64,000 nucleotides of DNA from an uncultured Prolixibacteraceae bacterium (GCA_964605775.1 CAZSDU010000001.1:102741-166740), one strand, 5' to 3'. Positions 29,543 through 62,063 are shown, numbered from the stretch's first letter. Translations and numbers: made by a program. Notes: generated by a model not told the origin, from the letters alone.

Positions 29543-32500
29543 TTAGTGGCTGACCGTGATTTTAACGGTACGGATACCTTGTGTGGTAGTGACTTTCACA
29601 AAGTAAACTCCGTTCATCAAAACAGAAACATTGACCTTGGCGGTTTTACTTTCAACATTTTGTTTAGTGTAAACCGTTTGTCCAAGATAATTCATCATTT
29701 CAATGTTGGTGATGTTATCACTGCTCTTAATGTTCACGACTTCAGTTGCCGGATTCGGGTAAACCGAGAAGTTGGTCGTAACCTGAGGATCTATACCAAG
29801 CACAACATCTGCCATAACAATGTTAGAAGCATCTGAGGTACATTCTGCAAATACTGAAGTGACATAATAATAATGCAAACCATATTCAACACCCATATCA
29901 ACATAGGTAGTATCCGTAACAACGGAAGTGTTGATCTTGTTGAATGTAATCTGGTTGTCGTCACTACGCCAGATATCATATCCCTGGAGAGAGGAAGCCG
30001 TTGGATTGTTCGGCATGATCACGCCACTACCGATATGACTGTAAGTATCCCCGCTGATATTGGAGAGCTCGGTAGTATTGTTGCCAGGTGTGCCGGTAAA
30101 TGGATTCTGTCCGGGAAGAATGTTGAAACCATTTGCACTTTTGCCATTGGTATAACCATTGGCCCTGATGGTAGCAACAGCCGGGGTTCCCAGATATTCA
30201 CCAAAGGTTTGCCATACGGATCCATCATACCTCATGCCATAATCGTCTGCAGCATAAGGTCCGTTATCGTCAACACCCATCCAATACGGTCTGGTTCCTG
30301 TATGGTTTGAATGAACCATACCATAGAAGGTACCGCTGAAATCGATGTTGGGAACCGGGATATTCTGCCATACATTGGGAACCTGCATTACCGGTGCCGA
30401 TGTTCCGATGAGGGTATAAGTATCATCAAAGACATCAATGGTAACCTGAGTTGCCCCGGTGGAAGAACCATCATAGTGGAATACATCAAAAGAAGTCAGG
30501 GTTCCGCTGCCACCGCTGGGGAGCATGAACATATTTCCAAACCATCTTTCTCCACTGGATGAACTCAGCCCGTTCTCGTAAGTGCCATCATCCCAGATGA
30601 TCTGGAAAGCAGTACTCGAAACACAAAGAGGGCCGGTCCATGACAGATAGACATCCTGGTCGGCAATATCATTTACCAGTAAATTCGTCGGTGGTGTACA
30701 AACGGCATAAACATGGATGTTATCCACATACCAGTGGAGCATGTCAATAGAGTTCTCTCCATTGGCGCGGAAACGAATCTTGAAGGCCTTGCCCATGGTG
30801 CCCTTGAGTTCGAAGTGCTGGCTGTTCCAGTCAACATCACCTTCATTGACGAATTCCGTTACTTTTTTCCAGGAACCGTTGGTGTATAATTCTACCGTTA
30901 GTTTTTCATCACCGGTTGCATTGCGGTCAAGAAGCTTATAGTCGAAGTCCAACCATATCTTGGCACAGGTATAAATTGCTGCGCTCAGGGTCGGGGATTC
31001 AATGCTTCTCGAATAATTGGTCAACAGTGAAGTAAAGGCCTGGAAGTCGGCTGAAGGCAATGGATTTCCAAAGCCAGTGCTGACCACCCAACCACCTTCA
31101 GTATTCCATTCATGAAATGTGAATGTTCCCTGATCCCATGGTTCGTAGAACGGTATGGGAATACCATAATTGATCGTTACTTCAACCGGTCCGGCTGCCA
31201 GTGAATTGTCATTCAGCGGCGGAATCGGGGCAACATCATAGTAACCCGTCACTTCATAGGAATATACTCCCGGATCCAGGAAATAATCATAATACTCAAG
31301 CGTATTGGGATTGGGTACATAACCTACCAAAGCTCCATCACGCCAGATATTGTATCCCAGCAAGGTCGGGGGAGAGGTCATCGGTGCACTCGGGGAGACA
31401 TCGGCTACAATCGTCTGGTCCATGCCAAGATTGATGGCGGCGCCAACCAATTGAGTCGGGTTCTGGCCCTGGGGCTTCTGGGTGGGATCCAATACCACCG
31501 TACTGCCGCCGTGACCTTTCTTGTCATATACAAATGCCGTGGCCCTTTGCAGGAAGGTACAGGGAGTATAGCCAAATACGTCGACTGCGCTCGCGAATAC
31601 CCCGTCATAGTTTGTCCAGGCGAGTCCATCAGGAGGTACCTGAGGTCCGCTGTTGTCATACATGAAGTAGTTCTTCACCGGGGTGGCTGATATATAATAA
31701 TCTACCAGCGCGTAGAAGGGTCCCGTAAACGGAATATCGTTTACGTTCACCGTTACCCAGTTCCCTGAAGGATAGGGGGCGCCTGTGTTGATAAACGGCG
31801 CCGACTGGCCGATCAGGTTTTCGGCTATATCATAAATGTATAGGATACAGCTCTGTGCAGATGAACTGCTGGTGGAGCTGAAATACATATCAAAGGATTT
31901 CAGTACGCCAGTGGTTGCGGCATCGATCGGGAATTTGTTACCCATCATGATCTGGTAACCGGCATTGATCGATACTCCGTTTTCTGCCGTTCCGTCGTCA
32001 TATACCCAGGTGACCAGGTGACCGCCTCCGCAATTCGGCTTCTCCCAGGTCAGGTAAGCCGTGCTTTCAATCGGCGTTCCCGTAAGTTCTGTCGGGGGAC
32101 AGAGGAACTTGGCCGTGAAAGTGGTGCATACCTGGGGTGAATATCCGCTTCCATAGACTGCTTCCACGCAGGCATTATAGGTGTTGCCATAAATCACTTC
32201 GCCCGGGGGAATATTGTAGGTAGTATCCGGGGTGAAGTGAAGTGCTCCATTCAGGTAGAAATTATAACCGTAAACACAGGGGTTAGGTCCGCTTACGGCA
32301 TCAACGCCGTACAACTGGATATTGTCAAGGTTCCAGTTGTTGATATCATAGGAGTCTTCGCCGGCAGCATGGAACCTGAATTTAAAGGTGTTGTTCACCT
32401 CATAGGGGGTGACATCCACTGCGATGGTCGTCCAGGCGATATTGCCAGTATTGGCATGGCTGTCAACTTCAACCCAGGTTGTCCCGTTCCAGAACTCCAC

Positions 32501-35095
32501 GGCCATGGTATTCAGGTTACTGGTACCATAATTGCTCAGGTAGAGGTCATAGACGAACAGGTGGGCCGGGGCTGCAGAGCCCTCAAGCACCTTGCTGGTA
32601 ATATACTGGTCGTAGCCCATGACTTCAGGACTCCAGTTGAACATGGCCGATGGAGCCGGGTGGCCTGTACCGGTGCTCACGCTCCAGTTTCCGCCATCAA
32701 CTGTCCAGCCGTTGGCGGTAAAGTTGCCACTTGCCCAGGCTTCATTGAAGAGAAGCTTCTTATTCCTGGGAGGAGACCAGCTTGCTTCAAGGGTTACACC
32801 ATCAACCATCAGGTTGGTGACCGGATCCTTGACATGCAAGGGCGATACATCAAAGGTTGAAGGACCGAAAATGGCTACATCCTGGGTGTAAAGATCATAG
32901 AAAATACGATCCACGATCAGGTGGTAATTGCCTTTCCATACATTGGTAAAGTTGACTTTACCCGTGGCATCGGTCGTGCCGGTATAAGTGGTATCCGGAA
33001 TATCAATGTTCTCCAGCGTGACAACCGTTCCTTCCAGAGGATCCGAAGCGCAGGTAAGAGTGACGTTGACCGTAACGTTGGTCGTCCAGTTCTTGCCCAA
33101 TATATTGGAGAAGATATAGTCTGACCAGCGGTTGCCGGTGTATTTGGCTTTCACGGCCCAGCGGTAAGCGCCATCGGGCAGGGAAGGCCAGCTATTGTCA
33201 ACGGTACTGTTAGTAGTCGGGGTAGAAACCGAAGTCCAGACAGCCGGATTGGTTTCTTCACCCGGGTGGAGACGAAAGACCTGATAGCCTATGAGTGCCG
33301 TGGGGGCATCAATGGGGCCGCCGAGTCCGTTCACCACGCAGCGCATCATAAAGTTGCCGTCGGCAGGTACCCAGGGGCCGCTGCCGGTCACAAATTGACT
33401 ATAGCTGCGAAGCTGGGTGGCTGTATTGTCAACAGCCAAACGGGCAGCTACCGAGGAGTTGCCTCCCTGGATCATCACCATATAGAAATTGCCCGAGTTG
33501 ATCACCACGCTGGGAAGCGTGAAGGTGTTCCAGCCAAATACGCTGGGCACTACATCCACGGGATCCCCTATGGGGCTGCCCGGAAGTCCGCCTGGGCCGG
33601 TGGCATCATAAAGCTGGACCTGGAAAGGAGCCAGATCTCCGATGGCCGGACTGCCCGGATAATCACTTTGTGCGCCAATGTTTATACTACCGCTTTTAAT
33701 GGTCACCGGGTAGTTCAGCGGGGTGAATTTCAATGCATTGAAATTCCCTTCTGCTGCCCATACCGTGGTAGTTTCTTTAACCCCGTCGTCATAGATCAGC
33801 TCATAGTCGCCAATGGGTTGTCCCCAGGTCAGCGCCACCTGTGTCGGCGGTGTGTTCAGCGTAGCTGTAAACGGTTGAATAGGTTTGTTCAGGGCTTCAC
33901 CCAGGGCGATGTTTACCGTTTGGGTAACACCCGGAGTAAAAGTATAATTACCTGAGAGGAAGTTCTCAAATCCGGCTTTGCTTACCGCGATCGGATAACT
34001 GCCACCGGGAAAGACCTGAAGGGAATAAGTTCCACCTTCGATAGAATAAGTAGTCAGTCCGTTCACCGTGATCTTAGCTCCTTTTACCGGTGCTCCATTG
34101 GCCGCATTGGTAATGGTTCCGTTAAGAATGGCCGGAGTCGGCGTCATGGTAAAGTTTTTGGTTGTGGTGGACCCGCTGACAATAACCGCAGTGCCTGAGT
34201 ATGGCATATAGCCTGCTAAGGTGGCATTGACCGTAGCCGTTCCGGCAGGAATACCGGTTTTGGTATAAACCCCAGAAGCATTGGTAGTGACCGGAGTAAG
34301 GGCATTCACGGTTACGGTTACTCCTGAGATTGGAGTACCTGTAAAGGTATTGGTAACCGTACCTGTTAAGGTTCCGCCGGGTCCTCCCGGCAGGGTGATA
34401 TTCCAGGTAGCCAGCACTTCTGCATCGCTTAAAGCCCGGTTGTATAAACGGAATTCATCCATCAGACTTCCTCCTGGCATACAGTAGGTAGTTGTTCCAT
34501 ACCCGCCAATCAGGAAGGGACCGGCGCCTGATATTGTTACAGCCGGTTGAGTTACGGGAGTCCCGGAAAGAACACCATTTTTAAAAACCCTGATCGAAGT
34601 TCCGGTATAGACAAAATGAACAACCACAGGCCCCGTTGAAACACCTGATACGACAACATCACTTAAACCTCCACCGCGAAGTAAGAGATTCCCTGCCCCA
34701 GCAGCGCCGTTCATAAAGCAACGGAAAGAAGTGGCGTTAATGTCACCAAAAAGATAGTTCAGATCGGTATTACTGGGAATCCCGTTCAACCACATCGAAA
34801 TGGTCCAACCGGTACTGGGCAGATTCGTAACCCAGTTAGTATTTAAGCGGTGTGAAGAGGAGGGATTAGTCGTTCCGACACCCTGCATGGCAGTGCTGAA
34901 CTGACCCGTACCACCAATGGTCAATCCTGAAAGGATAGCAGGATTAGTCCCTGTAGGAGGTGCGGAGGCATAATTCACCTGATTGCCGGCAGCGTTGAAG
35001 TTATAATACATCAACTCAGGAACATTCTGGGAGAATACTTCCATGGTCATAAATACCAGGAAAAACATCTGAATAATTTTGTACAATTGTTTCAT
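29543..35095 (-). CDS. large T9SS adhesin-like protein 1 (LamG-like head, carboxypeptidase-regulatory-like repeats, Fn3-like hosts with inserted domains, CTD)
   Basis: 1850 aa; signal peptide; WTISMWL...MDEFRLYNRALSD head; VYPNP CTD. Confidence 0.85.
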   Translation of the reverse strand: MKQLYKIIQMFFLVFMTMEVFSQNVPELMYYNFNAAGNQVNYASAPPTGTNPAILSGLTIGGTGQFSTAMQGVGTTNPSSSHRLNTNWVTNLPSTGWTISMWLNGIPSNTDLNYLFGDINATSFRCFMNGAAGAGNLLLRGGGLSDVVVSGVSTGPVVVHFVYTGTSIRVFKNGVLSGTPVTQPAVTISGAGPFLIGGYGTTTYCMPGGSLMDEFRLYNRALSDAEVLATWNITLPGGPGGTLTGTVTNTFTGTPISGVTVTVNALTPVTTNASGVYTKTGIPAGTATVNATLAGYMPYSGTAVIVSGSTTTKNFTMTPTPAILNGTITNAANGAPVKGAKITVNGLTTYSIEGGTYSLQVFPGGSYPIAVSKAGFENFLSGNYTFTPGVTQTVNIALGEALNKPIQPFTATLNTPPTQVALTWGQPIGDYELIYDDGVKETTTVWAAEGNFNALKFTPLNYPVTIKSGSINIGAQSDYPGSPAIGDLAPFQVQLYDATGPGGLPGSPIGDPVDVVPSVFGWNTFTLPSVVINSGNFYMVMIQGGNSSVAARLAVDNTATQLRSYSQFVTGSGPWVPADGNFMMRCVVNGLGGPIDAPTALIGYQVFRLHPGEETNPAVWTSVSTPTTNSTVDNSWPSLPDGAYRWAVKAKYTGNRWSDYIFSNILGKNWTTNVTVNVTLTCASDPLEGTVVTLENIDIPDTTYTGTTDATGKVNFTNVWKGNYHLIVDRIFYDLYTQDVAIFGPSTFDVSPLHVKDPVTNLMVDGVTLEASWSPPRNKKLLFNEAWASGNFTANGWTVDGGNWSVSTGTGHPAPSAMFNWSPEVMGYDQYITSKVLEGSAAPAHLFVYDLYLSNYGTSNLNTMAVEFWNGTTWVEVDSHANTGNIAWTTIAVDVTPYEVNNTFKFRFHAAGEDSYDINNWNLDNIQLYGVDAVSGPNPCVYGYNFYLNGALHFTPDTTYNIPPGEVIYGNTYNACVEAVYGSGYSPQVCTTFTAKFLCPPTELTGTPIESTAYLTWEKPNCGGGHLVTWVYDDGTAENGVSINAGYQIMMGNKFPIDAATTGVLKSFDMYFSSTSSSSAQSCILYIYDIAENLIGQSAPFINTGAPYPSGNWVTVNVNDIPFTGPFYALVDYYISATPVKNYFMYDNSGPQVPPDGLAWTNYDGVFASAVDVFGYTPCTFLQRATAFVYDKKGHGGSTVVLDPTQKPQGQNPTQLVGAAINLGMDQTIVADVSPSAPMTSPPTLLGYNIWRDGALVGYVPNPNTLEYYDYFLDPGVYSYEVTGYYDVAPIPPLNDNSLAAGPVEVTINYGIPIPFYEPWDQGTFTFHEWNTEGGWVVSTGFGNPLPSADFQAFTSLLTNYSRSIESPTLSAAIYTCAKIWLDFDYKLLDRNATGDEKLTVELYTNGSWKKVTEFVNEGDVDWNSQHFELKGTMGKAFKIRFRANGENSIDMLHWYVDNIHVYAVCTPPTNLLVNDIADQDVYLSWTGPLCVSSTAFQIIWDDGTYENGLSSSSGERWFGNMFMLPSGGSGTLTSFDVFHYDGSSTGATQVTIDVFDDTYTLIGTSAPVMQVPNVWQNIPVPNIDFSGTFYGMVHSNHTGTRPYWMGVDDNGPYAADDYGMRYDGSVWQTFGEYLGTPAVATIRANGYTNGKSANGFNILPGQNPFTGTPGNNTTELSNISGDTYSHIGSGVIMPNNPTASSLQGYDIWRSDDNQITFNKINTSVVTDTTYVDMGVEYGLHYYYVTSVFAECTSDASNIVMADVVLGIDPQVTTNFSVYPNPATEVVNIKSSDNITNIEMMNYLGQTVYTKQNVESKTAKVNVSVLMNGVYFVKVTTTQGIRTVKITVSH
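30699..33928. repeat. 3,230-bp direct repeat, copy 1
   Basis: Matches 36556-39785 at offset 5857; translations and all shadow ORFs are identical; boundaries read by eye. Confidence 0.92.
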
Positions 35096-35150
35096 AGATT
35101 TGGTTTTTTTTAGATAGCTAAAATATAATGGATCAACTAATTCGATAATT

Positions 35151-35168
35151 AATTGATATATATAGGGA
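35151..35168. promoter_or_regulatory. 18-bp upstream motif shared by T9SS genes 1 and 2
   Basis: aattgatatatataggga, 56 nt from the gene 1 ATG; identical at 40912-40929. Confidence 0.55.
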
Positions 35169-35345
35169 GGGCGTTTCGTACATACCTGTTTTTCAGTATT
35201 TTAAAAATTGTGCCAAATATACATAAAAAAATAATTCAAATAAAAAAATAATTTTGGGAATATTTTCCAGAAATTAACTTCAGGGAAAGGGAAGGAAAGA
35301 GAATAGAACTCCCTACGATTTTTGAAATGGCTGAGGGGTGAGCAT

Positions 35346-35380
35346 AAAAAAAGAGGGCGGCCAATGGTCGCCCTCTTTTT
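35346..35380 (-). terminator. intrinsic terminator of T9SS gene 2
   Basis: aaaaaagagggcggcc-aat-ggtcgccctcttttt. Confidence 0.85.
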
Positions 35381-35399
35381 AGAAATTTCCAATGAAGGA

Positions 35400-38300: not shown

Positions 38301-40850
38301 GCCAGTATTGGCATGGCTGTCAACTTCAACCCAGGTTGTCCCGTTCCAGAACTCCACGGCCATGGTATTCAGGTTACTGGTACCATAATTGCTCAGGTAG
38401 AGGTCATAGACGAACAGGTGGGCCGGGGCTGCAGAGCCCTCAAGCACCTTGCTGGTAATATACTGGTCGTAGCCCATGACTTCAGGACTCCAGTTGAACA
38501 TGGCCGATGGAGCCGGGTGGCCTGTACCGGTGCTCACGCTCCAGTTTCCGCCATCAACTGTCCAGCCGTTGGCGGTAAAGTTGCCACTTGCCCAGGCTTC
38601 ATTGAAGAGAAGCTTCTTATTCCTGGGAGGAGACCAGCTTGCTTCAAGGGTTACACCATCAACCATCAGGTTGGTGACCGGATCCTTGACATGCAAGGGC
38701 GATACATCAAAGGTTGAAGGACCGAAAATGGCTACATCCTGGGTGTAAAGATCATAGAAAATACGATCCACGATCAGGTGGTAATTGCCTTTCCATACAT
38801 TGGTAAAGTTGACTTTACCCGTGGCATCGGTCGTGCCGGTATAAGTGGTATCCGGAATATCAATGTTCTCCAGCGTGACAACCGTTCCTTCCAGAGGATC
38901 CGAAGCGCAGGTAAGAGTGACGTTGACCGTAACGTTGGTCGTCCAGTTCTTGCCCAATATATTGGAGAAGATATAGTCTGACCAGCGGTTGCCGGTGTAT
39001 TTGGCTTTCACGGCCCAGCGGTAAGCGCCATCGGGCAGGGAAGGCCAGCTATTGTCAACGGTACTGTTAGTAGTCGGGGTAGAAACCGAAGTCCAGACAG
39101 CCGGATTGGTTTCTTCACCCGGGTGGAGACGAAAGACCTGATAGCCTATGAGTGCCGTGGGGGCATCAATGGGGCCGCCGAGTCCGTTCACCACGCAGCG
39201 CATCATAAAGTTGCCGTCGGCAGGTACCCAGGGGCCGCTGCCGGTCACAAATTGACTATAGCTGCGAAGCTGGGTGGCTGTATTGTCAACAGCCAAACGG
39301 GCAGCTACCGAGGAGTTGCCTCCCTGGATCATCACCATATAGAAATTGCCCGAGTTGATCACCACGCTGGGAAGCGTGAAGGTGTTCCAGCCAAATACGC
39401 TGGGCACTACATCCACGGGATCCCCTATGGGGCTGCCCGGAAGTCCGCCTGGGCCGGTGGCATCATAAAGCTGGACCTGGAAAGGAGCCAGATCTCCGAT
39501 GGCCGGACTGCCCGGATAATCACTTTGTGCGCCAATGTTTATACTACCGCTTTTAATGGTCACCGGGTAGTTCAGCGGGGTGAATTTCAATGCATTGAAA
39601 TTCCCTTCTGCTGCCCATACCGTGGTAGTTTCTTTAACCCCGTCGTCATAGATCAGCTCATAGTCGCCAATGGGTTGTCCCCAGGTCAGCGCCACCTGTG
39701 TCGGCGGTGTGTTCAGCGTAGCTGTAAACGGTTGAATAGGTTTGTTCAGGGCTTCACCCAGGGCGATGTTTACCGTTTGGGTAACGCCTGAAGCAAAAGT
39801 ATAATTACCTGAGAGGAAGTTCTCGAATCCGGCTTTGCTTACCGCGATCGGATAACTACCCGGAGTGTAAACGTTCAAAGAGTAAACACCACCTTCAATA
39901 GAATAGGTAGAAAAACCATTCACTGTAATCTTGGCTCCTTTAACCGGTGCGCCATTGGCCGCGTTGGTAACAATACCATTCACGATACCCGGCAAGGGGT
40001 AAAGGGCAAAATTCAATGTTGCGGTTCCACCTGAGGGAACGGTGGTACTCTTGGTCTGTGGTTCATAGAGGGCTTTAGCAGCAGTGGCAGAAACCAGGCC
40101 TGAAGGAACAGTCATGGTATAATTACCTGATGCATTGGTTGTAGCTACCGTTGTTCCGACTGTAACCGTGGCGCCCACCAGGGGTGCATTGGTGTTGGCA
40201 TCCTTGACCTGGCCGGTCAGTGTTCCCGGAGGAATAGCCAATTGGTACAAACGGATATTTTCACGGACAGAAGCCATGTAAACAGTACCGGTAAGGGAAC
40301 AACCTGTTCCGTAATCGGTATAAGCATAATTGGCCTGTGTGGTGTTGGCCGTTCCATTTACAGAAAACGAGGTACCCCATACAGCGTCTGCATTATCATG
40401 GCAGAAATTCAGCTTAATGTTGGAGGTGCCATTCCATGGAAATGGAGTTGTCAGTGTAATGATCTGCCATCCTGTTCCGGAAAAGGCGAAACTGGCCGAC
40501 TCATAGACTATCGTCCAGCCTGCTTCATCAAAAGCAGTAGTAACAACAGCATCCGTAGTATTCTTCATGGAAATTTTGAAGTTCACCAGTGCAAATCCAC
40601 TGGCGGTGGTGTTGTCGAATGCCAATTTGGTGATGTTCCCAGCTGTTAAAGTGGGAGTCATTTCACTGGCAAGAAAGATTACCTGATGACGGTGATCGGC
40701 CCAGGTTGAATAGAAGGGGTAAGAGGTCGTTGAGGTCCCAGTCCCGATCTGAACATACACTTCCTGCGCCAAACCTGTCTTCGCAAATAGCATCATCGAC
40801 ACAAAAAAGAGCAGCATCGACTTTGCAAGCAGTTTGGTAACATTTTTCAT
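35400..40850 (-). CDS. large T9SS adhesin-like protein 2 (different head and tail, shared core)
   Basis: 1816 aa; signal peptide; head QEVYVQIGTGTSTTSYPFY; VYPNP CTD. Confidence 0.85.
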   Translation of the reverse strand: MKNVTKLLAKSMLLFFVSMMLFAKTGLAQEVYVQIGTGTSTTSYPFYSTWADHRHQVIFLASEMTPTLTAGNITKLAFDNTTASGFALVNFKISMKNTTDAVVTTAFDEAGWTIVYESASFAFSGTGWQIITLTTPFPWNGTSNIKLNFCHDNADAVWGTSFSVNGTANTTQANYAYTDYGTGCSLTGTVYMASVRENIRLYQLAIPPGTLTGQVKDANTNAPLVGATVTVGTTVATTNASGNYTMTVPSGLVSATAAKALYEPQTKSTTVPSGGTATLNFALYPLPGIVNGIVTNAANGAPVKGAKITVNGFSTYSIEGGVYSLNVYTPGSYPIAVSKAGFENFLSGNYTFASGVTQTVNIALGEALNKPIQPFTATLNTPPTQVALTWGQPIGDYELIYDDGVKETTTVWAAEGNFNALKFTPLNYPVTIKSGSINIGAQSDYPGSPAIGDLAPFQVQLYDATGPGGLPGSPIGDPVDVVPSVFGWNTFTLPSVVINSGNFYMVMIQGGNSSVAARLAVDNTATQLRSYSQFVTGSGPWVPADGNFMMRCVVNGLGGPIDAPTALIGYQVFRLHPGEETNPAVWTSVSTPTTNSTVDNSWPSLPDGAYRWAVKAKYTGNRWSDYIFSNILGKNWTTNVTVNVTLTCASDPLEGTVVTLENIDIPDTTYTGTTDATGKVNFTNVWKGNYHLIVDRIFYDLYTQDVAIFGPSTFDVSPLHVKDPVTNLMVDGVTLEASWSPPRNKKLLFNEAWASGNFTANGWTVDGGNWSVSTGTGHPAPSAMFNWSPEVMGYDQYITSKVLEGSAAPAHLFVYDLYLSNYGTSNLNTMAVEFWNGTTWVEVDSHANTGNIAWTTIAVDVTPYEVNNTFKFRFHAAGEDSYDINNWNLDNIQLYGVDAVSGPNPCVYGYNFYLNGALHFTPDTTYNIPPGEVIYGNTYNACVEAVYGSGYSPQVCTTFTAKFLCPPTELTGTPIESTAYLTWEKPNCGGGHLVTWVYDDGTAENGVSINAGYQIMMGNKFPIDAATTGVLKSFDMYFSSTSSSSAQSCILYIYDIAENLIGQSAPFINTGAPYPSGNWVTVNVNDIPFTGPFYALVDYYISATPVKNYFMYDNSGPQVPPDGLAWTNYDGVFASAVDVFGYTPCTFLQRATAFVYDKKGHGGSTVVLDPTQKPQGQNPTQLVGAAINLGMDQTIVADVSPSAPMTSPPTLLGYNIWRDGALVGYVPNPNTLEYYDYFLDPGVYSYEVTGYYDVAPIPPLNDNSLAAGPVEVTINYGIPIPFYEPWDQGTFTFHEWNTEGGWVVSTGFGNPLPSADFQAFTSLLTNYSRSIESPTLSAAIYTCAKIWLDFDYKLLDRNATGDEKLTVELYTNGSWKKVTEFVNEGDVDWNSQHFELKGTMGKAFKIRFRANGENSIDMLHWYVDNIHVYAVCQPAQDLAGDAQGMNVKLDWKSPNCGNSGVLVKLWQWDGDPDNGYYQNYDYAYGVVYDLAAYPDATLEMIDFHHASWGTMGTWQYNIHIVDWNTYTEIAVLGPLTTTGDDIWENGVSLEETDGSGGGMIGIMLEPLSNSSTDAYPCFSADNSGPDGVSVYGPLPDYSGFATSGIGDFLQNLWIRTEFGKGELVSPRQVPVSELQAMTRNVNPSYTFNGYLQTNQHAAQVTSNQPSALAGYDVYRMDPNGTEFNKINTALVTDTTYMDLDLNAGEYNYYVLSVYPECTMSMTSDTVTVDVIIGIDPQVTTNFSVYPNPATEVVNIKSSDNITNIEIMNYLGQTVYTKQNVDNKTAKINVTGLMNGVYFVKVTTTQGIRTVKITVSH
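36556..39785. repeat. 3,230-bp direct repeat, copy 2
   Basis: Matches 30699-33928. Confidence 0.92.
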
Positions 40851-40911
40851 AATGTTAGATTTAAGTGAATATTAATTGATTATTAGAAGAAAATATGGGG
40901 ATCAATTTTGC

Positions 40912-40929
40912 AATTGATATATATAGGGA
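40912..40929. promoter_or_regulatory. 18-bp upstream motif, second copy
   Basis: aattgatatatataggga, 62 nt from the gene 2 ATG. Confidence 0.55.
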
Positions 40930-41143
40930 AATTTGTCTCATACAATTAAAAATGTCAATTATTCAGAAATTTTTTCTAAATAATTGATTATCTTAGTTTT
41001 AAAAATTATTCTGGAGAAGAACAACATTGATTTTCTACTCCGACAGCAAATATAAAACAAATTATATTATCCCATGCAAATTTTTTCGTTTTTTCTTTCT
41101 TTTTGCCTCAAGTGGATTTTTTATAATTTTGCAAAAAAAAAAC

Positions 41144-41533
41144 ATGAAAATTATCAGACCGCTGCTTATTATTCTCTCCTGCGTGATCATATTTGATGGC
41201 TGCAGTTCCCTGAAGAACACCAATAAAAAAACCGTGATCGGTTACTGGAAAAAATACCAGGGTAATGCTGAAGGGGAAAAAACTGCTGCTTTAAAGGGAG
41301 AATTGACTGCCATGGAATTCAGGGCAGATAAAACGGCCACCTTAACTTATACGGACAGGGAATTAAATGGTAAATGGGCACTTGACAATACCGGAACGGG
41401 CATCTTATTTACTGAAACAAACACCAAAACTCCCTTTGAAATACGACTGGCCCGGGTGGCAGATGATGCTTTGGGAATCAATGAAGATGTTGAAGGAGGG
41501 GAAAGGCTAATAAAATTCCTCAGGGAAAAATAA
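41144..41533 (+). CDS. small lipoprotein, lipocalin-like
   Basis: MKIIRPLL...FDGC lipobox; IGYWK, FRADKTATL, GKW; start ATG at 41144. Confidence 0.65.
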   Translation: MKIIRPLLIILSCVIIFDGCSSLKNTNKKTVIGYWKKYQGNAEGEKTAALKGELTAMEFRADKTATLTYTDRELNGKWALDNTGTGILFTETNTKTPFEIRLARVADDALGINEDVEGGERLIKFLREK

Positions 41534-41664
41534 TCCCCTGATTAATCCGTTCCTTCCCTGTAATTCTTTTTATCATGAAATATCAGCAAGAATAACGTTC
41601 AGGCAAACCGTGAATGATAATTTATGGATATTCCTGACTGATTTGTAACCATCAATATTATCCT

Positions 41665-42192
41665 ATGAAAAATAATACCACCCTATTACTCCTTGTATTT
41701 TCCGCCATGATTATGCTGGGGTCCTGTTCCGTTTCGAATATGAACAAGCAGTTGATCCTGGGTCGCTGGGAAGTTGTCAAAACAGGTCCATTTATCCAGA
41801 AAAATACCGCGGCTGAATCGCTGCAGGCCGGCGACAGCCTTACAGCCTTAGCGCTGAATCCGGACGTTCAGGCAGAAATGGAACGCCAGGGAATGACCAA
41901 TTACAAGAACATCGCCCGTGACACCAAAAAGAAACAGCGCCAGGTCATGCGGGCAAGTCTTTTTTCGAGTGTAGTTTTTGATGCGGATCAGACCGCAACC
42001 TTATATTTCGGGAAAAAGGGATTTCCTGCCCAATGGAAAATGAACCGTAGGGGAAATAAAATCATGATGAGGGATACTGCTTCCTCGATCAAAGCTACCC
42101 TCACGGTTGTTCTTCTGGATTCCCTCAACCTGAAAACGATCAATAAATTCCCGGAGGGAAAGCTGGAAAAAACATACCTCAGGCAGAAGTAA
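41665..42192 (+). CDS. small lipoprotein, lipocalin-like
   Basis: MLGSC lipobox; LGRWE, FDADQTATL, AQW. Confidence 0.65.
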   Translation: MKNNTTLLLLVFSAMIMLGSCSVSNMNKQLILGRWEVVKTGPFIQKNTAAESLQAGDSLTALALNPDVQAEMERQGMTNYKNIARDTKKKQRQVMRASLFSSVVFDADQTATLYFGKKGFPAQWKMNRRGNKIMMRDTASSIKATLTVVLLDSLNLKTINKFPEGKLEKTYLRQK

Positions 42193-42196
42193 TCCG

Positions 42197-45100
42197 CTAA
42201 TATTTGATCATTGGAATACAGTACATCCCGGCATTGCCGGTGGTGAAAACTTTCATCAGGTAATGACCCTCCGACAGGTTCTCTAAGGGGATGATCGTCT
42301 CCAACACAGCATTCAGGGAAAAATCGGCTACTTTTAATCCCAGGACATTGATCAGGAGTATCCTGTTCATGGGCATCGTGGATTTCACCCGGATCTGATC
42401 CCGGGCGGGATTGGGGTAAACAGTGAGTGGTCCATCATACTGCTTTCCCAAGGAGGTAATCACATCCACTTCAATGGTATCGGAAGCTGTGGCTTCGTTG
42501 CAGGTATTGCCGGTAGTCTGAATATAGTAACGATACAAGCCGTAAGGGAGTCTGAAGTCAATGAAGGCCGTATCGGTCAAAGGCTGGGAATTGGCTTTGA
42601 CATAAACCCCGCCGGCAGGGTCCTGGCGGTAAACGTCATATAAGATCGGAGGGGTAGTAAATTCCAGTTTTTGTCCCCCCAGGGTACAGTCGTCTATCCC
42701 CCAGTAATACCACAGACCCTGTCCGCCGTTGTCGGTGGCATGCCAGGCCAGGTCAACCACATCCCCCAGGTAGGATGACATATTAATCATATAAGGATGT
42801 TGCCATTGATTATACCCGCCGGGTCCCGGGAAGGGAGGAAGGGCGGAGAGGTCCATCAGTACATCCCAGCTATTGCCCTGGTCGGTGGAAACCTTGACAT
42901 AGTAATGGTCATCATGGGCTGATCCCTGATAGGCGAGACTCCAGAAGCTGAGGTTGCCACCCACATAGACATTTTTAGCGATAAGCCATTCGTCCTGATG
43001 GTTATAGTCCCAGTATAATCCTGCGGAATAATTCCCGGAATGCACGCCAATCGGTGGGGAGATACCTGTATGCGTCCAGCTTGCCCCGGCATTATGCGTG
43101 ATCTGAGACCAGCCCGGGGGAGGAAATTCTTCTCCCTCAAACCCTTGCTGAAGAATATTTCCTCCTCCGCTGCATTGGGGAGGGCTCCAGGAGAGATGAA
43201 TATCATCACCCCAGGCTTCGCCGTAAGGATCAGTGGGTGGCAAACAAACAGCATAAACAGCAATATTATCCACCAACCACGTACTGATGTTGTCGGAATT
43301 ATTTCCGCCGGCAATGAAGCGAAAACGAAAGCCTTTTCCTTTCACCACGCTGATATCGATATGCTGAGTAATCCATTCGATATTGCCCGAATTGCTGAAT
43401 TCGGCTTTTTGATGCCAGGTGTTATTGTAAAAAACCTCTGCGGTCAGCTTTTCATTTCCGTTAGCTGTTTTATCCAGGAGTTTCAGGTCGAAATCCATCC
43501 AAATTTTTGCGCAGTTATCCGGTGTTGCATCCAGGACGGGACTTTCGAGGGCAAAGGAATAAAGCTGATGGTTGGGAGATCCCGTAAAAACGGCTGAGGG
43601 AAGAGGGTTTCCCTCCTCCTGACTGATCACCCAGTTTCCCTGCTGACCGTTGAAACGCCATTCATTATAGGTAAAAGACCCCTGATTCCAGGGTTCATTA
43701 AAAGGCAGTAACCTTCCGTAATGAATCATGACCGATACCGGTCCAGCGGGCATCGAATGGTCTTCCTGACCGGGATGTCCATAAGTGGTAAGGTCATATA
43801 AAGCATCCACCGTATAGGAATAGTTGCCGGGTTCCAGATTGACATCATAAAAGGAGAGGTTATCGTTCCCCGGAAGATAGATAAGAAAACTGCCGTTTCT
43901 ATAGATGTTGTATCCTTTGATTCCTTCGGGCATTACCGGGCCTGAATCCGAGGGCATGGTAGGTTCGTGCCAGCTCAGGTAAACGGTATTTTCAAGGATT
44001 TCGGCATTCAGTTCGGTGGGAGGCCAGAGAAAATGTGACGTTAATGCAGCGCAGACCTGTTCGGAATACCCGCTGGTATAGATGGCCCTGACGCATGCCT
44101 GATAAGTGGAATCGTAACGGACCAGGGATCCGTCTATGGTATAATGGTTATCGTTGACCAGGGCAAGCAGGGTGTTATCAAGATAAAAATTATAGCCAAA
44201 AATACAGGGAGCCAGGAGGTGGGCGGATTCTGAAGCCGTGATTAGGATATTATCAATATACCAGCCGTTGATCTGGTAAGAATCTTGCCCGAATGCCCGG
44301 AAACGGATGTTAAAGTGGGTGTTGGAATAGGCAGAAATATCGATGACATCGGTGGTCCAGGGGATGCTGCCGCCGGCATTGGTCCATACTTTCAGGGTAT
44401 GCCATGAAATTCCGTCGTAAATCTCTATGGCCATCTGGTTGAGCGCCGCCGTGGAATAATTATCCAGGTTGATTTCGTATTGCAGGGTCATGATGGGACT
44501 GTTCTGACCTTCTACCATCCGGCTGGTCAGCGATTGTTCATAGTTGGGAACAGGAGGGGACCAGCTAAAAAACGCGGAGGGTGCAGGATGACCTGCCGTC
44601 ATGGAAATCCTCCAGTTGATCCCTCCTTCTCTTACCCAGCCCCCGCTCAGAAAATCGCCGCTGTTAAAGTTTTCCTGCAGCAGGGGAAGGGAATAAAACG
44701 GTTCATCCCAGACCGCGTGAAGGCTGACACTATCCACGACCAGGTTAGTGGGCGGGGATTTGATCTGAAGCAGAATGATATCGAGGGATAAAGGGGTATT
44801 GACAGAGCAAAACCCTGAATAGGTAAGATAACCAAACTTCATCGCTTTGACTTCATAGGACCCTTTCCATACGCCGGGGAAAACGACCTGGCCGCTGGGA
44901 TTGCAAACCCCCTGGTAAACGGTATCCTGATAGACCTGATTCGTCAGGGTGATGAGGGTTCCTTCGGGGTCGGCTGCTGCACAGCTCAGGCTAAGGTTGA
45001 TGTTAACCGGAGCTGTCCAGCATTTTCCCAGTACATTAGAGAAAGTCGGTTCTGACCATCGGTTACCTGTATAACCCGTCTTTACACACCAGCGGTGAGG

Positions 45101-46168
45101 GCCGCAGGGCAGGGCCGGCCAGGAAGGGTCCACCGTCTCGGTGATGTTCACGCTACCCAGGAAAACCCAAGCCATGGGGTTCAGTTCTTCACCCTGATGC
45201 AACCTCCATAATTGATAGCCTATCAAGCTTTGTTCGCCGGAAGTGAGGTCCAAAGGCCCGCCAGTACCTGATACCAGGGCACGGATCATGAAATTCCCTG
45301 CTGCCGGTACCCAGGGTTGGTTTCCCGTGACTGCTTTAAAATAACTGCGGTATTGAGGGAAAGTCACATCAATGGCCAGTCCGGCTGCATTGGGAGCATT
45401 TCCACCCTGTATCATGGCAATGAAGAAGTTCCCTGCTGCAAGGCTTACCGGAGACGGAAAGGTAAAATCTATCCATCCCAAAGCGGCGGGGATCACATCA
45501 AAGGGACCCGCGATCACATTTCCGGGTGTACCTCCCGTTCCGTTTCCATCCAGGATGATCACCTGGAAAGGGACCAGGGGATTACTTCCCGGTGGATAGT
45601 TGGAGGCGTTTCCAATATTGATTTTACATCCTTTAACCAGAACAGGATATCCCACTGGCGTAAATTTCACGGCATTCATGTTTCCCGCCTGGGACCATAC
45701 GGTAAAATTATCCTGCAGGCCATCGTCATAGATCAGTTCGTATGTTCCTTCGGGTTGGCCCCAGGAGAGATAGACTCTCTGGTTGGCCGTATCCATCACT
45801 GCCGATAATAGCGGTGAAGGGTTGGGGGTTTCCCATAAAGTAATATTGAGGGTAATGATGTTCCCGGACTGAAAGGTTACGGGATCAGAAGTGAAAGGGT
45901 CAAAGCCGGCTTTTGATGCGTTCACCGGAAAAACGCCTAAGGGTTGAATGTTAAGACTGTAAACTCCGGCGGTAACCGAGTACGTGGAAACACCGTTGAC
46001 CGTTATCCTGGCACCGATCACGGGATGTCCGGTGGTGGCATGGGTTACGGTACCCACCAGGGTGGCGGAGGACAGAAATCCGGTTTGCGAAAAAAGAGGA
46101 AAACCAGTTAAAAACAAAAGTCCCCAAAAAAGGATCTGAAAATAATATTTTATTTGTGATGGATTCAT
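42197..46168 (-). CDS. large T9SS adhesin-like protein 3 (headless paralog with cleaved-adhesin/choice-of-anchor-J-like tail)
   Basis: Clear homology to the core of genes 1/2 (ELIYDDG..AGNMNAVKFTP, KYTGNRWS, GKCWT); tail QGFEGEEFPPPGW...QDEWLI...YYVKVSTDQGNSW; VYPNP CTD; start ATG at 46168. Confidence 0.82.
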   Translation of the reverse strand: MNPSQIKYYFQILFWGLLFLTGFPLFSQTGFLSSATLVGTVTHATTGHPVIGARITVNGVSTYSVTAGVYSLNIQPLGVFPVNASKAGFDPFTSDPVTFQSGNIITLNITLWETPNPSPLLSAVMDTANQRVYLSWGQPEGTYELIYDDGLQDNFTVWSQAGNMNAVKFTPVGYPVLVKGCKINIGNASNYPPGSNPLVPFQVIILDGNGTGGTPGNVIAGPFDVIPAALGWIDFTFPSPVSLAAGNFFIAMIQGGNAPNAAGLAIDVTFPQYRSYFKAVTGNQPWVPAAGNFMIRALVSGTGGPLDLTSGEQSLIGYQLWRLHQGEELNPMAWVFLGSVNITETVDPSWPALPCGPHRWCVKTGYTGNRWSEPTFSNVLGKCWTAPVNINLSLSCAAADPEGTLITLTNQVYQDTVYQGVCNPSGQVVFPGVWKGSYEVKAMKFGYLTYSGFCSVNTPLSLDIILLQIKSPPTNLVVDSVSLHAVWDEPFYSLPLLQENFNSGDFLSGGWVREGGINWRISMTAGHPAPSAFFSWSPPVPNYEQSLTSRMVEGQNSPIMTLQYEINLDNYSTAALNQMAIEIYDGISWHTLKVWTNAGGSIPWTTDVIDISAYSNTHFNIRFRAFGQDSYQINGWYIDNILITASESAHLLAPCIFGYNFYLDNTLLALVNDNHYTIDGSLVRYDSTYQACVRAIYTSGYSEQVCAALTSHFLWPPTELNAEILENTVYLSWHEPTMPSDSGPVMPEGIKGYNIYRNGSFLIYLPGNDNLSFYDVNLEPGNYSYTVDALYDLTTYGHPGQEDHSMPAGPVSVMIHYGRLLPFNEPWNQGSFTYNEWRFNGQQGNWVISQEEGNPLPSAVFTGSPNHQLYSFALESPVLDATPDNCAKIWMDFDLKLLDKTANGNEKLTAEVFYNNTWHQKAEFSNSGNIEWITQHIDISVVKGKGFRFRFIAGGNNSDNISTWLVDNIAVYAVCLPPTDPYGEAWGDDIHLSWSPPQCSGGGNILQQGFEGEEFPPPGWSQITHNAGASWTHTGISPPIGVHSGNYSAGLYWDYNHQDEWLIAKNVYVGGNLSFWSLAYQGSAHDDHYYVKVSTDQGNSWDVLMDLSALPPFPGPGGYNQWQHPYMINMSSYLGDVVDLAWHATDNGGQGLWYYWGIDDCTLGGQKLEFTTPPILYDVYRQDPAGGVYVKANSQPLTDTAFIDFRLPYGLYRYYIQTTGNTCNEATASDTIEVDVITSLGKQYDGPLTVYPNPARDQIRVKSTMPMNRILLINVLGLKVADFSLNAVLETIIPLENLSEGHYLMKVFTTGNAGMYCIPMIKY

Positions 46169-46268
46169 ACGCTCCCTACAAAAATACAAAAAGCAGGGTT
46201 GAAAAAGACTTTTTCATGCTTTTAAGGTTCTTTTTTTTCGGAAAAACTTGCCAGAATGAAAATTTTTA

Positions 46269-56117: not shown

Positions 56118-56144
56118 AAGAGATCATTCAAAAAGGATTGAACT

Positions 56145-56198
56145 GCAAAGTAACGGATTTTTGTCTATATCTCTTTCTCGGGAAAATTCTTACATTTG
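56145..56198. promoter_or_regulatory. divergent -7 elements for FAAL1 (minus, TACTTTTG 56145-56152) and ACP (plus, TACATTTG 56191-56198)
   Basis: Two TAnnTTTG matches in a 100-bp divergent spacer. Confidence 0.55.
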
Positions 56199-56217
56199 CG
56201 CCAAAATTTGATGCCCC

Positions 56218-56466
56218 ATGAAAATTGAAGATTTCATCGCCCAACTGGAAGAAGAATATGAAGATATCAAACCCGGGACGCTTAGCCCTGAAAGTGTCTT
56301 CAGGGAAATTTTTGAATGGAGTTCCATCAACGCGCTCATCTTGATTGCCCTGGTAAAAACCCAGTACGATGTAACGATCAATGCTGAAGATATTGCCAAA
56401 TCCGTGACCATAAAAGACCTTTTCGGAATTATCCAGGAAAGGGCCCAAAAAAATCAACCGGTTTAA
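56218..56466 (+). CDS. acyl carrier protein
   Basis: 82 aa, acidic; FEWSSINALILIA (Ser attachment site), KSVTIKDLF. Confidence 0.85.
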   Translation: MKIEDFIAQLEEEYEDIKPGTLSPESVFREIFEWSSINALILIALVKTQYDVTINAEDIAKSVTIKDLFGIIQERAQKNQPV

Positions 56467-58508: not shown

Positions 58509-58515
58509 TTCGGGG

Positions 58516-58561
58516 CAAAATTAGAAAAAATCGGATTTGATAAAAAAAAACAGTATTTTTG
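58516..58561. promoter_or_regulatory. divergent -7 elements for FAAL-ACP (minus, TAATTTTG 58516-58523) and KAS III (plus, TATTTTTG 58554-58561)
   Basis: Two TAnnTTTG matches in a 92-bp divergent spacer. Confidence 0.55.
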
Positions 58562-58600
58562 CTTAGTTCATCATTCCGGAAGAATCAACAGAAGCTCATA

Positions 58601-59674: not shown

Positions 59675-59679
59675 CAAGT

Positions 59680-60414: not shown

Positions 60415-60415
60415 C

Positions 60416-62051: not shown

Positions 62052-62063
62052 TGCTCTCCGGCA

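Follow-up and report, generated by a model that had tools for sequence, protein, structure and literature searches.

In Gram-positive pilus-tip adhesins, such as RrgA and the tip pilins of GBS and GAS, the adhesive domain lies inside a loop of an Ig-like stalk domain, the protein is anchored at the surface and the stalk is covalently stabilised. The hosts are CnaA or CnaB domains with isopeptide bonds, the inserts are vWFA or thioester domains, and anchoring is by sortase and LPXTG. In FnIII-2 of the insulin receptor and IGF1R, an insertion of more than 100 residues, largely disordered, occupies the C-C' loop. Glycoside hydrolases such as the GH3 beta-glucosidases carry PA14/CBM insertions, in which a beta-sandwich carbohydrate-binding module sits in a loop and occurs sporadically among homologs. 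Choice-of-anchor J, cleaved-adhesin and MAM domains are arranged in tandem in the familiar examples, and engineered monobodies or adnectins use the B-C loop pole of the tenth Fn3 domain of fibronectin as a display surface with short randomised loops. For the nested Fn3 sockets described here we found no earlier description.

The window, which is the whole stretch of 64,000 nucleotides that was analysed, derives from a Bacteroidales bacterium and contains three adjoining genes:

29543-35095, minus strand: gene 1 (1850 aa), with putative signal peptide, LamG_3, two CarboxypepD_reg, Fn3 with type A insert, CarboxypepD_reg-like, Fn3 with type M, Fn3 with type B, tandem M domain, Fn3 with type B' and T9SS type A tail
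35400-40850, minus strand: gene 2 (1816 aa), sharing the scaffold of gene 1 with two differences, N-terminal domain X (unnamed) and insert type Q at unit 4
42197-46168, minus strand: gene 3 (1323 aa from the ATG), with CarboxypepD_reg, Fn3 with type A, CarboxypepD_reg-like, Fn3 with type M, intact Fn3, tandem M domain, Fn3 with type J and T9SS tail

The open reading frame of gene 3 (42197-46189) starts with TTG and has the ATG at 46168, the gene end given in the preliminary description, as codon 8. A start at this ATG is supported because the closest ortholog is 1323 aa long, matching the length counted from it; residue numbers of gene 3 are counted from 46189 (TTG), not from this ATG. The neighbours of the locus are housekeeping genes, without polysaccharide-utilisation genes.

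Each gene encodes four Fn3 units, and 11 of the 12 are interrupted after LxWxxP and resume at GYxxxR. Searched as [LVA]xWxxP (entry) and GYxxxR (exit), the motifs pair four times per gene (residues 422 to 603, 771 to 943, 1015 to 1247 and 1484 to 1705 in gene 1; 388 to 569, 737 to 909, 981 to 1213 and 1449 to 1670 in gene 2; 141 to 324, 492 to 665, 738 to 759 and 999 to 1184 in gene 3), the last exit of gene 3 deviating as LYDVYR. The inserts measure 163-223 aa, with the exception of unit 3 of gene 3, where 12 aa are found. HMMs of the host halves, which the preliminary description had proposed as a check, match the units (E 1e-5 to 1e-12 for the N half, 1e-9 to 1e-31 for the C half), apart from unit 1 of genes 1 and 2, whose N half was detected by motif only; more than 200 homologs are laid out in the same way. 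Because of these matches and this recurrence the split layout is not due to chance, and the observation of split units is confirmed. The features are as follows:

33815-33886, minus strand: gene 1 unit 1 N half, strands A-B, ending LTWGQP, aa 404-427
33299-33814, minus strand: gene 1 unit 1 insert, YDDG type A, aa 428-599
33080-33298, minus strand: gene 1 unit 1 C half, strands C-G, from GYQVFR, aa 600-672
32768-32839, minus strand: gene 1 unit 2 N half, ending ASWSPP, aa 753-776
32279-32767, minus strand: gene 1 unit 2 insert, MAM/Reelin-B-like type M, aa 777-939
32108-32278, minus strand: gene 1 unit 2 C half, from GYNFYL, aa 940-996
32036-32107, minus strand: gene 1 unit 3 N half, FLCPPTEL to LTWEKP, aa 997-1020, with Cys at the start of strand A
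31367-32035, minus strand: gene 1 unit 3 insert, YDDG type B, aa 1021-1243
31148-31366, minus strand: gene 1 unit 3 C half, from GYNIWR, aa 1244-1316
30701-31147, minus strand: gene 1 MAM-like domain, tandem and not nested, aa 1317-1465
30629-30700, minus strand: gene 1 unit 4 N half, CTPPTN to LSWTGP, aa 1466-1489
29993-30628, minus strand: gene 1 unit 4 insert, YDDG type B (WDDGTYENG), aa 1490-1701
29774-29992, minus strand: gene 1 unit 4 C half, from GYDIWR, aa 1702-1774
29546-29764, minus strand: gene 1 T9SS type A C-terminal sorting domain (Pfam/NCBIfam matches)
39156-39671, minus strand: gene 2 unit 1 insert, type A, aa 394-565; host halves 39672-39743 and 38937-39155
38136-38624, minus strand: gene 2 unit 2 insert, type M, aa 743-905; host halves 38625-38696 and 37965-38135
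37224-37892, minus strand: gene 2 unit 3 insert, type B, aa 987-1209; host halves 37893-37964 and 37005-37223
36561-37004, minus strand: gene 2 MAM-like domain, tandem, aa 1283-1430
35853-36488, minus strand: gene 2 unit 4 insert, type Q (WQWDGDPDNG), divergent YDDG relative, aa 1455-1666; host halves 36489-36560 and 35631-35852
45230-45751, minus strand: gene 3 unit 1 insert, type A, aa 147-320; host halves 45752-45823 and 45011-45229
44207-44698, minus strand: gene 3 unit 2 insert, type M, aa 498-661; host halves 44699-44770 and 44033-44206
43706-44032, minus strand: gene 3 unit 3, uninterrupted seven-strand Fn3 (empty socket) lacking both Cys, aa 720-828
43250-43705, minus strand: gene 3 MAM-like domain, tandem, aa 829-980
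42647-43177, minus strand: gene 3 unit 4 insert, choice-of-anchor J (type J), aa 1005-1181; host halves 43178-43249 and 42431-42646
30699-33928 and 36556-39785, no strand assigned: copies 1 and 2 of a perfect direct repeat of 3,230 bp, units 1-3 and the tandem M domain of genes 1 and 2

Neither the uncut proteins of the three genes nor a C half of unit 3 alone gave a match to Pfam fn3 (PF00041). With the insert spliced out, unit 4 of gene 1 reaches 28.4 bits on this model (cutoff 25, E 1.9e-6) in an alignment that spans the junction; the remaining single spliced units mostly stay under the cutoff (E 0.05-0.2). A profile built from 27 spliced hosts, with the halves joined end to end and the inserts left out, matches the solved Fn3 domain 3mpc_A (E 3.4e-11; positions 7-79 aligned, gapless at the junction) and also many titin Fn3 domains, whose B-C loop falls exactly at the junction. 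Unit 3 of gene 3 aligns on both sides with unit 3 of gene 1, at a site where genes 1 and 2 carry 223 aa, and it is a contiguous seven-strand domain in an AF2 model of pLDDT 87. The empty site previously placed at about 43900-43985 is found as LSWHEP to GYNIYR (aa 738-764, 43898-43978) within an intact Fn3. Because the spliced hosts match without a gap and the same site is intact in this unit, the inserts are assigned to the B-C loop. At the level of sequence and profile, this supports the view, already taken in the preliminary description, that the hosts are Fn3 domains made discontinuous by a passenger.

The AF2 secondary structure of units 1 and 2 of gene 3 and unit 3 of gene 1 consists of two strands, the insert and five strands, and that of unit 4 of gene 3 has four strands after the insert. 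In the model of unit 3 of gene 1, strands A (6-13) and B (16-22) have pLDDT values of 87-93, and strands C-G block means of 72-97. The B-strand Trp is invariant, and the coupling analysis contains B-E and B-C pairs across the junction, in a signal that host subfamilies confound. Strands A and B would presumably pack against the rest of the Fn3 domain in three dimensions.

The inserts in the window belong to two superfamilies, YDDG (types A, B and Q) and a MAM/choice-of-anchor-J-like group (types M and J), and relatives add a YDDG type S3 and a few further classes. By blastp and hhalign, the YDDG types are linked (B-A, E 5e-10; B-S3, 3e-7; Q-B, 2.7e-5), as are J and M (E 5.6e-14), and no link between the two groups was obtained with either program. 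The YDDG module of about 220 aa reported at 31370-32030 agrees in position with the 223-aa insert of unit 3 (31367-32035), also present in gene 2, but only about 170 aa form a beta-sandwich and about 50 aa are a low-complexity return linker. It follows from the two-superfamily grouping that the three different inserts noted earlier at the last site are two distant homologs and one unrelated domain. The last-site insert of gene 1 is a clear homolog of its unit-3 insert (31% identity over 192 aa, E 2e-17), and type Q of gene 2 is a distant relative of type B (hhalign E 2.7e-5). Type J of gene 3 matches choice-of-anchor J (NF038128; aa 1013-1168, 69.1 bits against 30, E 5e-19); its earlier description as cleaved-adhesin-like is borne out only through this model, and Pfam Cleaved_Adhesin (PF07675) has no match in the window proteins at E<=10 and is on record only for some Cloacimonadota homologs. 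Against the MAM/Reelin subrepeat B models (PF00629, PF21471, PF20773), the whole gene 3 protein scores 27.6 bits and those of genes 1 and 2 score 22.3, with a cutoff of 27, and M domains taken singly reach 16.8-18.6 bits. Between units 3 and 4, each gene has one MAM-like domain that is not inserted but simply lies in tandem with its neighbours. DUF4082 (PF13313) was rejected as a home for YDDG (best E 0.013 for S3 and 0.036 for A; 15.9 bits against 28.4), and type B gave no match to it. Foldseek matches of the YDDG unit were weak (Cwp84 lectin-like domain, E 4e-4; phage and viral jelly rolls), so that "lectin-like" is a statement about fold class only.

Among relatives, the unit profile matches 420 representative clusters at E<=1e-30, and in the best 150 of them W..P precedes the YDDG domain in 138 of 164 cases, with the C half usually following. 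Hosts of the unit-3 type are empty (125) or hold B (14), S3 (7), S6 (7), S10 (4) or S11 (3), and those of the unit-4 type hold J (125), S3 (13), B (12) or Q (3). Orthologs with flanks 76-100% identical have inserts only 6-30% identical, and the breaks fall at the loop boundaries. Flank and insert identities are 76-96% and 13-26% in the homologs P0125 and P0126, and 60-86% and 6-30% in P0132 and P0140, in which the same socket holds J and B, respectively. The inserts of P0125 and P0126 are of types B and S3, and both start with WDDGT. In the Cloacimonadota pair P0172 and P0175, the scaffold outside two sockets is mostly 72-100% identical and the flanks 93-100%, and a 72%-identical YDDG insert lies in socket 1 in one member of the pair and in socket 2 in its partner. 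The short paralog (gene 3 type) is architecturally fixed, being a single length-conserved ortholog of about 1320 aa (47-92% identity) in 77 species genomes, whereas the long paralogs (gene 1 and 2 types) vary at sockets 3 and 4. These comparisons with hundreds of relatives show, in line with the exchangeable passengers proposed earlier, that the inserts have been exchanged like cassettes over evolutionary time in a constant host domain.

Several entry points end in Cys (WEKPNC, WTGPLC, WKSPNC, WSPPQC), as had been noted. In counts that ignore phylogeny, 163 units have Cys both at the strand-A start and directly behind W..P, 25 have one of the two and 513 have neither; empty, A-type and M-type sockets lack the pair. 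The co-occurrence would fit a disulfide closing the N-half hairpin; the earlier Cys idea gains statistical support, but with the likely partner at the start of strand A the bond would not clamp the insert.

The T9SS type A sorting domain (TIGR04183, NCBIfam cutoff 23) scores 41 bits in gene 1 and 43.5 bits in gene 2; the tail of gene 3 reaches 29.1 bits with Pfam Por_Secre_tail (PF18962, cutoff 27) and 15.3, below cutoff, with NCBIfam. Hydrophobic N-terminal leaders can be read in all three sequences, and catalytic domains had no Pfam or NCBIfam match in the three proteins. The products are probably T9SS-exported, non-enzymatic multidomain proteins anchored at the cell surface. Another CTD protein lies at 9514-11961. 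We suggest that Fn3 strands A and B come first and that the chain would exit at the B-C loop, fold as a complete beta-sandwich of 150-220 aa (a YDDG lectin-like or a MAM/choice-of-anchor-J module) and come back, in type B via the linker of about 50 aa, to complete the same Fn3 with its strands C-G. Where sockets 3 and 4 are filled, the Cys at the strand-A start and the Cys two residues past W..P would be in register across the A-B hairpin and are probably disulfide-bonded, holding the detached two-strand half together. The conserved host halves may serve as homology arms, so that recombination would replace inserts or shift them between sockets. The proteins are likely to bind glycans or other surface ligands multivalently, and cassette exchange would diversify their specificity. 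Taken as a whole, this model of exported proteins with Fn3 sockets, exchanged inserts, a disulfide and likely ligand binding appears probable to us.

One might instead read the proteins as beads on a string, in which LxWxxP either links domains or forms the first hairpin of the next jelly-roll and GYxxxR starts an independent, truncated Ig-like domain. The lack of a Pfam fn3 match in the uncut proteins and the truly tandem MAM-like domain of each gene would agree with this, but the spliced halves match Fn3 end to end, the N half runs straight into the C half at empty sites, and the N half tracks the host class rather than the insert type (about 80% identity between P0125 and P0126, against about 20% for the insert). 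Moreover, by established Fn3 topology, a five-strand remnant would leave strand E without an A or B sheet partner, and we find such an array scarcely credible. It is also highly improbable that the inserts diversified in place from one ancestor. A, B, S3 and Q are indeed distant homologs, as are M and J, and the common WDDGT start of P0125 and P0126 could be a trace of descent. However, divergence in place would not explain why 76-100% identity gives way to 6-30% precisely where the loop begins and ends, why the unrelated superfamilies J and B fill one socket in orthologs, why one insert type lies in different sockets of near-identical proteins, or why some orthologous sockets are empty.

The perfect repeat shared by genes 1 and 2 ends at the first codon of unit 4. 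At the last site the whole unit differs, and because the host halves are also only about 50% identical, this difference is not an insert-only swap. The repeat, together with variant positions within it in public contigs of related populations, might indicate an assembly artefact, with strain variants of one long gene set in tandem or copies homogenised by the assembler. We consider this quite improbable, since the independent related MAG L068 keeps the order gene 3, gene 2, gene 1 with long paralogs 92% identical in the repeat region, each gene has orthologs on other long contigs, and public contigs span three of the four repeat junctions; the nested architecture is in any case independent of the repeat. 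Somewhat less remote, though still unlikely, is that the architecture is real and the proteins are structural, as an S-layer-like coat or spacer whose inserts make lattice or self contacts. The conserved gene 3 type, a weak and partial match of the CarboxypepD_reg domains to an anammox S-layer model, and the housekeeping neighbours would suit such a role, but the long paralogs vary as binding repertoires do, and in their folds the inserts are similar to lectin, CBM and MAM modules.

Beyond this locus, we put forward tentatively, as a possibility that falls short of an expectation, that Fn3 B-C-loop sockets serve T9SS cargo across Bacteroidota, Cloacimonadota and neighbouring phyla as a general display platform that has so far gone undescribed, in which the host halves would act as homology arms for replacing, losing, doubling or moving binding domains between paralogs and strains. 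If true, recombination would generate a repertoire of surface specificities, comparable to the way cassettes vary in phage receptor-binding proteins. Pfam has no match for most of these large proteins, and their homologs are named after a minor domain only; domain finders miss the Fn3 units because they are nested and interrupted. Recognising the nested unit delimits at least one large superfamily of inserts that is not curated (YDDG) and provides a parsing rule for many T9SS cargo proteins in wastewater, sludge and freshwater metagenomes. The clean swaps are a natural case of tolerated domain insertion and modular exchange, and bear on Fn3-scaffold protein engineering and on surface diversification in uncultured Bacteroidales and Cloacimonadota.

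With the pilus-tip adhesins, these proteins share a domain placed in a loop of a putative stalk domain of a surface protein, but here the hosts are Fn3, the loop is always B-C, the disulfide is putative, export is by T9SS and the inserts are visibly swapped. The insulin receptor and IGF1R likewise have a natural Fn3 with a large loop insertion, which is not a folded exchangeable module. The PA14/CBM insertions are also plug-in beta-sandwiches, whereas their glycoside hydrolase host is catalytic and has no repeated socket array. Compared with choice-of-anchor J, cleaved-adhesin and MAM proteins (gingipain-HagA type arrays, RPTPmu, reelin), the unit-4 insert of gene 3 is a member of choice-of-anchor J, the M domains show borderline similarity to Reelin subrepeat B and MAM, and these domains are combined with Fn3/Ig domains and a T9SS tail; unlike in those tandem examples, most such domains here are nested inside Fn3. 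Monobodies and adnectins use the same B-C pole, at which the present proteins carry whole natural domains rather than short loops.

The three neighbouring surface-protein genes g1, g2 and g3 are surrounded by housekeeping genes (ABC-F ATPase, polyprenyl synthetase, L21, seryl-tRNA synthetase and Mfd) and occupy the following positions of the window:

29543-35095, minus strand: g1, 1850 aa
35400-40850, minus strand: g2, 1816 aa
42197-46189, minus strand: g3, a TTG-opened ORF with the ATG at 46168 as its likely start

The ATG is the likely start of g3 because the nearest ortholog has 1323 aa; the residue numbering of g3 used here begins at 46189. Each protein begins with a hydrophobic leader, ends in a T9SS type A sorting tail and contains CarboxypepD_reg domains; g1 additionally has a LamG_3 domain. 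Pfam leaves the greater part of each protein without a match, and searches of Pfam and NCBIfam detected no catalytic domain in any of the three. A Pfam search at E<=10 left the unnamed N-terminal domain of g2 (aa 31-201; window 40248-40760) without a match. This uncurated domain family has 151 copies among 80 homologs, and the Cloacimonadota-type proteins carry up to four each. Between g2 and g3, two plus-strand ORFs (41027-41533, 168 aa, and 41665-42192, 175 aa), both without a Pfam match, are possible genes.

The preliminary description of this DNA had claimed that Fn3-like units in these genes are split between an entry and an exit strand. We found pairs of an [LVA]xWxxP entry motif and a GYxxxR exit motif at the positions described, four in each gene, with a spacing of 163-223 aa in 11 of the 12 pairs and of 12 aa in unit 3 of g3. 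The latter site had been called empty and is so (43898-43978), the module placed at 31370-32030 in unit 3 of g1 lies at 31367-32035, and the four entry strings ending in Cys were all found. HMMs of the two host halves, the N half (strands A-B) and the C half (strands C-G), retrieved the units with E values of 1e-5 to 1e-31.

Four lines of evidence lead us to regard each host as one discontinuous Fn3 domain with its socket in the B-C loop, in which the A-B hairpin would pack against strand E and the core. After removal of the insert, unit 4 of g1 matched Pfam fn3 at 28.4 bits (gathering score 25 bits) in an alignment that spans the junction. The remaining spliced units had only weak fn3 matches, and Pfam fn3 matched neither the C half of unit 3 alone nor the uncut proteins. 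A profile built from the joined halves of 27 hosts matched 3mpc_A, an Fn3-like protein of Clostridium thermocellum, with an E value of 3.4e-11 over profile positions 7-79 and no gap at the junction; it also matched many titin Fn3 domains, the B-C loop of which falls exactly at the junction. Unit 3 of g3 can be aligned with unit 3 of g1 on both sides of a 223-aa insertion. PDB sequence searches with the whole proteins yielded only T9SS-tail, carboxypeptidase-regulatory and weak titin matches.

AlphaFold2 was used to model g3 aa 120-1255 from an alignment of 88 sequences (mean pLDDT 87); in this model unit 3 forms a contiguous seven-strand domain, and in units 1, 2 and 4 two strands are followed by the insert and then by four or five strands. 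The cassette of g1 unit 3 was modelled on its own (pLDDT 80.6, pTM 0.67), which placed strands A and B at residues 6-13 and 16-22 (pLDDT 87-93), a beta-rich insert at 29-194, a low-confidence linker at 195-247 and strands C-G at 248-312. The B-E, B-C and A-G pairs were within the top 45 in a mean-field coupling analysis of 902 split hosts, in which pairs across the junction were no more frequent than expected and the signal is confounded by host subfamilies; this analysis weakly supports the discontinuous Fn3. A Foldseek search with a single unit found the Fn3 structure 3pe9_A (TM 0.59 on the target, rmsd 15 A), a model-based match that is compatible with nesting and is no proof of it. The Foldseek search with the 1136-residue g3 model was rejected as a test of nesting, since its matches to reelin, titin, RPTPmu, ROS1 and GhpA came without query ranges.

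The inserts fall into several types. Within the window, BLAST showed that the unit-1 inserts of the three genes are orthologous (type A), that the unit-2 inserts are homologous to the tandem MAM-like domain between units 3 and 4 (type M; E 1e-19 to 1e-23), and that the unit-3 and unit-4 inserts of g1 are homologous to each other (type B; 31% identity over 192 aa, E 2e-17). The unit-4 insert of g3 is a choice-of-anchor J domain (type J; 69 bits, cutoff 30). Comparison of deeper profiles by hhalign linked B with A (E 5e-10), B with S3, a class found in relatives (3e-7), Q, the last insert of g2, with B (2.7e-5), and J with M (5.6e-14). The same comparison gave no link between the YDDG group (A, B and Q) and the M/J group, and therefore the window contains two insert superfamilies. 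The last site was thought to hold three different inserts; this is true for J, which is unrelated to the others, but B and Q are distant homologs of each other. Single-linkage clustering at E 1e-5 was abandoned because it fused J, M, B and Q via multi-domain inserts, and the classes were taken from stricter clustering and hhalign instead.

No Pfam model covers the YDDG group, and profile searches of PDB sequences with types A and B gave no meaningful relatives, nor did a PDB search with the type J insert as a single sequence. By Foldseek, the model of a YDDG unit weakly resembled lectin-like and viral or phage jelly rolls, with the PBCV-1 capsid protein (E 1e-5) and the lectin-like domain of Cwp84 (4e-4) as best matches. 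Among relatives, class S6 just passed the Pfam cutoff for DUF4394 (30.0 against 29.6 bits, E 4e-7) and matched DUF6923 below the cutoff. In types A, M and J the chain is back at the host within 10-15 aa. In type B, a fold of about 170 residues is followed by a return linker of about 50 residues, which is poorly conserved, rich in P, T, S, G and N, and of low model confidence:

about 31367-31520, minus strand: type B return linker, g1 aa about 1193-1243, with an equivalent in g2

Exchange of inserts was evident among relatives. HMMs of host halves and insert classes were used to annotate 228 homologs, the loci of 77 genomes and a further 143 proteins that a search among 1.84 billion cluster representatives had yielded. 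The short paralog (g3 type) has the constant layout R-A-c-R-M-c-n-c-M-n-J-c-T with socket 3 empty. Here R denotes CarboxypepD_reg, T the T9SS tail and X the N-terminal domain of g2 that has no name; n and c denote the two halves (N and C) of an Fn3 host, and insert types are written as A, M, B, J and Q. By our count, a long paralog (g1/g2 type) with the same scaffold adjoins the short one at about 40 of the 77 loci. Its socket 3 contains B, S3, a 280-aa class (S6/S10), S11 or nothing, and its socket 4 contains B, S3, Q, J or nothing. The hosts group by position, not by insert type.

Pairwise identity profiles of these sequences show clean replacement of inserts. Between the homologs P0125 (B) and P0126 (S3), the flanks are 76-96% identical and the inserts 13-26%; identity breaks directly past ...APNC and recovers at ...APLASSLQGY. 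For P0132 (J) and P0140 (B) the corresponding values are 60-86% and 6-30%. The Cloacimonadota proteins P0172 and P0175 have scaffolds mostly 72-100% identical, with flanks of 93-100%, and differ only at two Fn3 sockets: both carry a YDDG insert (72% identity), one protein in socket 1 and its partner in socket 2, and the remaining inserts at these sockets are choice-of-anchor-J-like and only 30% identical. Some sockets hold two tandem domains (unit 1 of P0139, P0144, P0146 and P0150; unit 4 of P0123 and P0145), the contents being A then an S11-like domain (about 465 aa) in one case and M plus B (about 386 aa) in another. The unit profile retrieved 11,210 representatives at E<=1e-3, of which many are plain Fn3 arrays; at E<=1e-30 it retrieved 420. 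In the 150 best representatives, W..P preceded the YDDG domain in 138 of 164 cases, and the layouts R-B-c-R-B-c-T and M-B-c-T recurred.

The window itself gives a different picture. A perfect direct repeat of 3,230 bp is common to g1 and g2 (30699-33928 and 36556-39785; g1 aa 390-1466) and stops at the first codon of unit 4, exactly at the boundary with the tandem MAM-like domain. Beyond it the entire unit 4 differs, with host halves about 50% identical. Therefore, the window alone documents whole-unit divergence together with conversion or homogenisation; the difference described at the last site of g1 and g2 holds for the whole unit, not as an insert-only swap. The repeat possibly results from recent gene conversion or from homogenisation by the assembler. 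An independent related MAG has the same gene order and two long paralogs that are 92% identical over the repeat region; public contigs contain variants inside the repeat and fit a real repeat as well as an assembler-homogenised one.

Cysteines were counted in 711 units, one near the start of strand A and one at most three residues past W..P; both were present in 163 units, a single one in 25 and neither in 513, kinship being ignored. The pair occurred in 120 of 158 J-type, 24 of 25 B-type, 3 of 4 Q-type and some S3 units, and was missing from A-type, M-type and empty sockets; unit 3 of g3 has Trp and Thr instead. The hairpin centre in the g1 unit-3 model lies between residues 14 and 15, which makes positions 3 and 26 neighbours across the two strands. 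We infer a putative disulfide that would close the detached two-strand half, a clamp unlike the clamped socket pictured in the preliminary description. In J-type units a second pair of Cys co-occurs at the insert end and in the F-G loop, again with kinship ignored.

The nearest genome match is a Prolixibacteraceae MAG (93% identity), and near-identical DNA is contained in wastewater, sludge, sediment and freshwater metagenomes. The g3 family was found in 77 species-level genomes, nearly all of them MAGs of Bacteroidales, Prolixibacteraceae or Draconibacterium. Two contigs with full g3 orthologs are labelled Alphaproteobacteria (L035) and Syntrophothermus (L055) and are probably mis-binned Bacteroidales; a locus of Lentisphaeria (L076) has a J-type nested unit. 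Elsewhere in the window, an MBOAT acyltransferase clusters at 54411-63515 with two AMP-binding enzymes, one of which has a carrier-protein domain, possibly as an envelope-modification system, and a TonB-dependent receptor (12056-14935) adjoins another candidate for export:

9514-11961, minus strand: probable T9SS cargo with PLD-like nuclease/phospholipase domains, DUF5689 and Por_Secre_tail

The nested Fn3 units are confirmed as an observation, and their interpretation is supported for architecture and exchange by the spliced-host Fn3 matches and the homolog comparisons; the disulfide clamps and the ligand binding are putative. The B-C loop is at the N-terminal pole of an Fn3 domain, and therefore each insert would stick out to the side where two domains of a T9SS-tailed chain join. 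Proteins with a type A T9SS tail normally lose it by cleavage and become attached to the cell surface. No catalytic domain was detected in the three proteins, and the inserts are of lectin-, CBM-, MAM- and adhesin-like fold classes. We suggest, at about even odds, that the likeliest role would be multivalent ligand binding, with a specificity that the long paralogs may vary by exchanging cassettes. The main alternative to ligand binding is a structural or coat role, in favour of which the strict conservation of the short paralog speaks.

No earlier account of inserted domains that split the Fn3 domains of T9SS proteins was found in the literature searched, and a check of the Sevenless/ROS1 structure paper for five words on domain insertion or interruption found none of them. 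Conceptual precedents for the nesting in g1-g3, none of which is known to unite hosts of the Fn3 type with a constant insertion site in the B-C loop, several sockets per chain, T9SS export and demonstrable swapping, are provided by the nested domains in surface adhesins such as Gram-positive tip pilins, by glycosidases with PA14 and CBM insertions, and by the insert domain in FnIII-2 of the insulin receptor.
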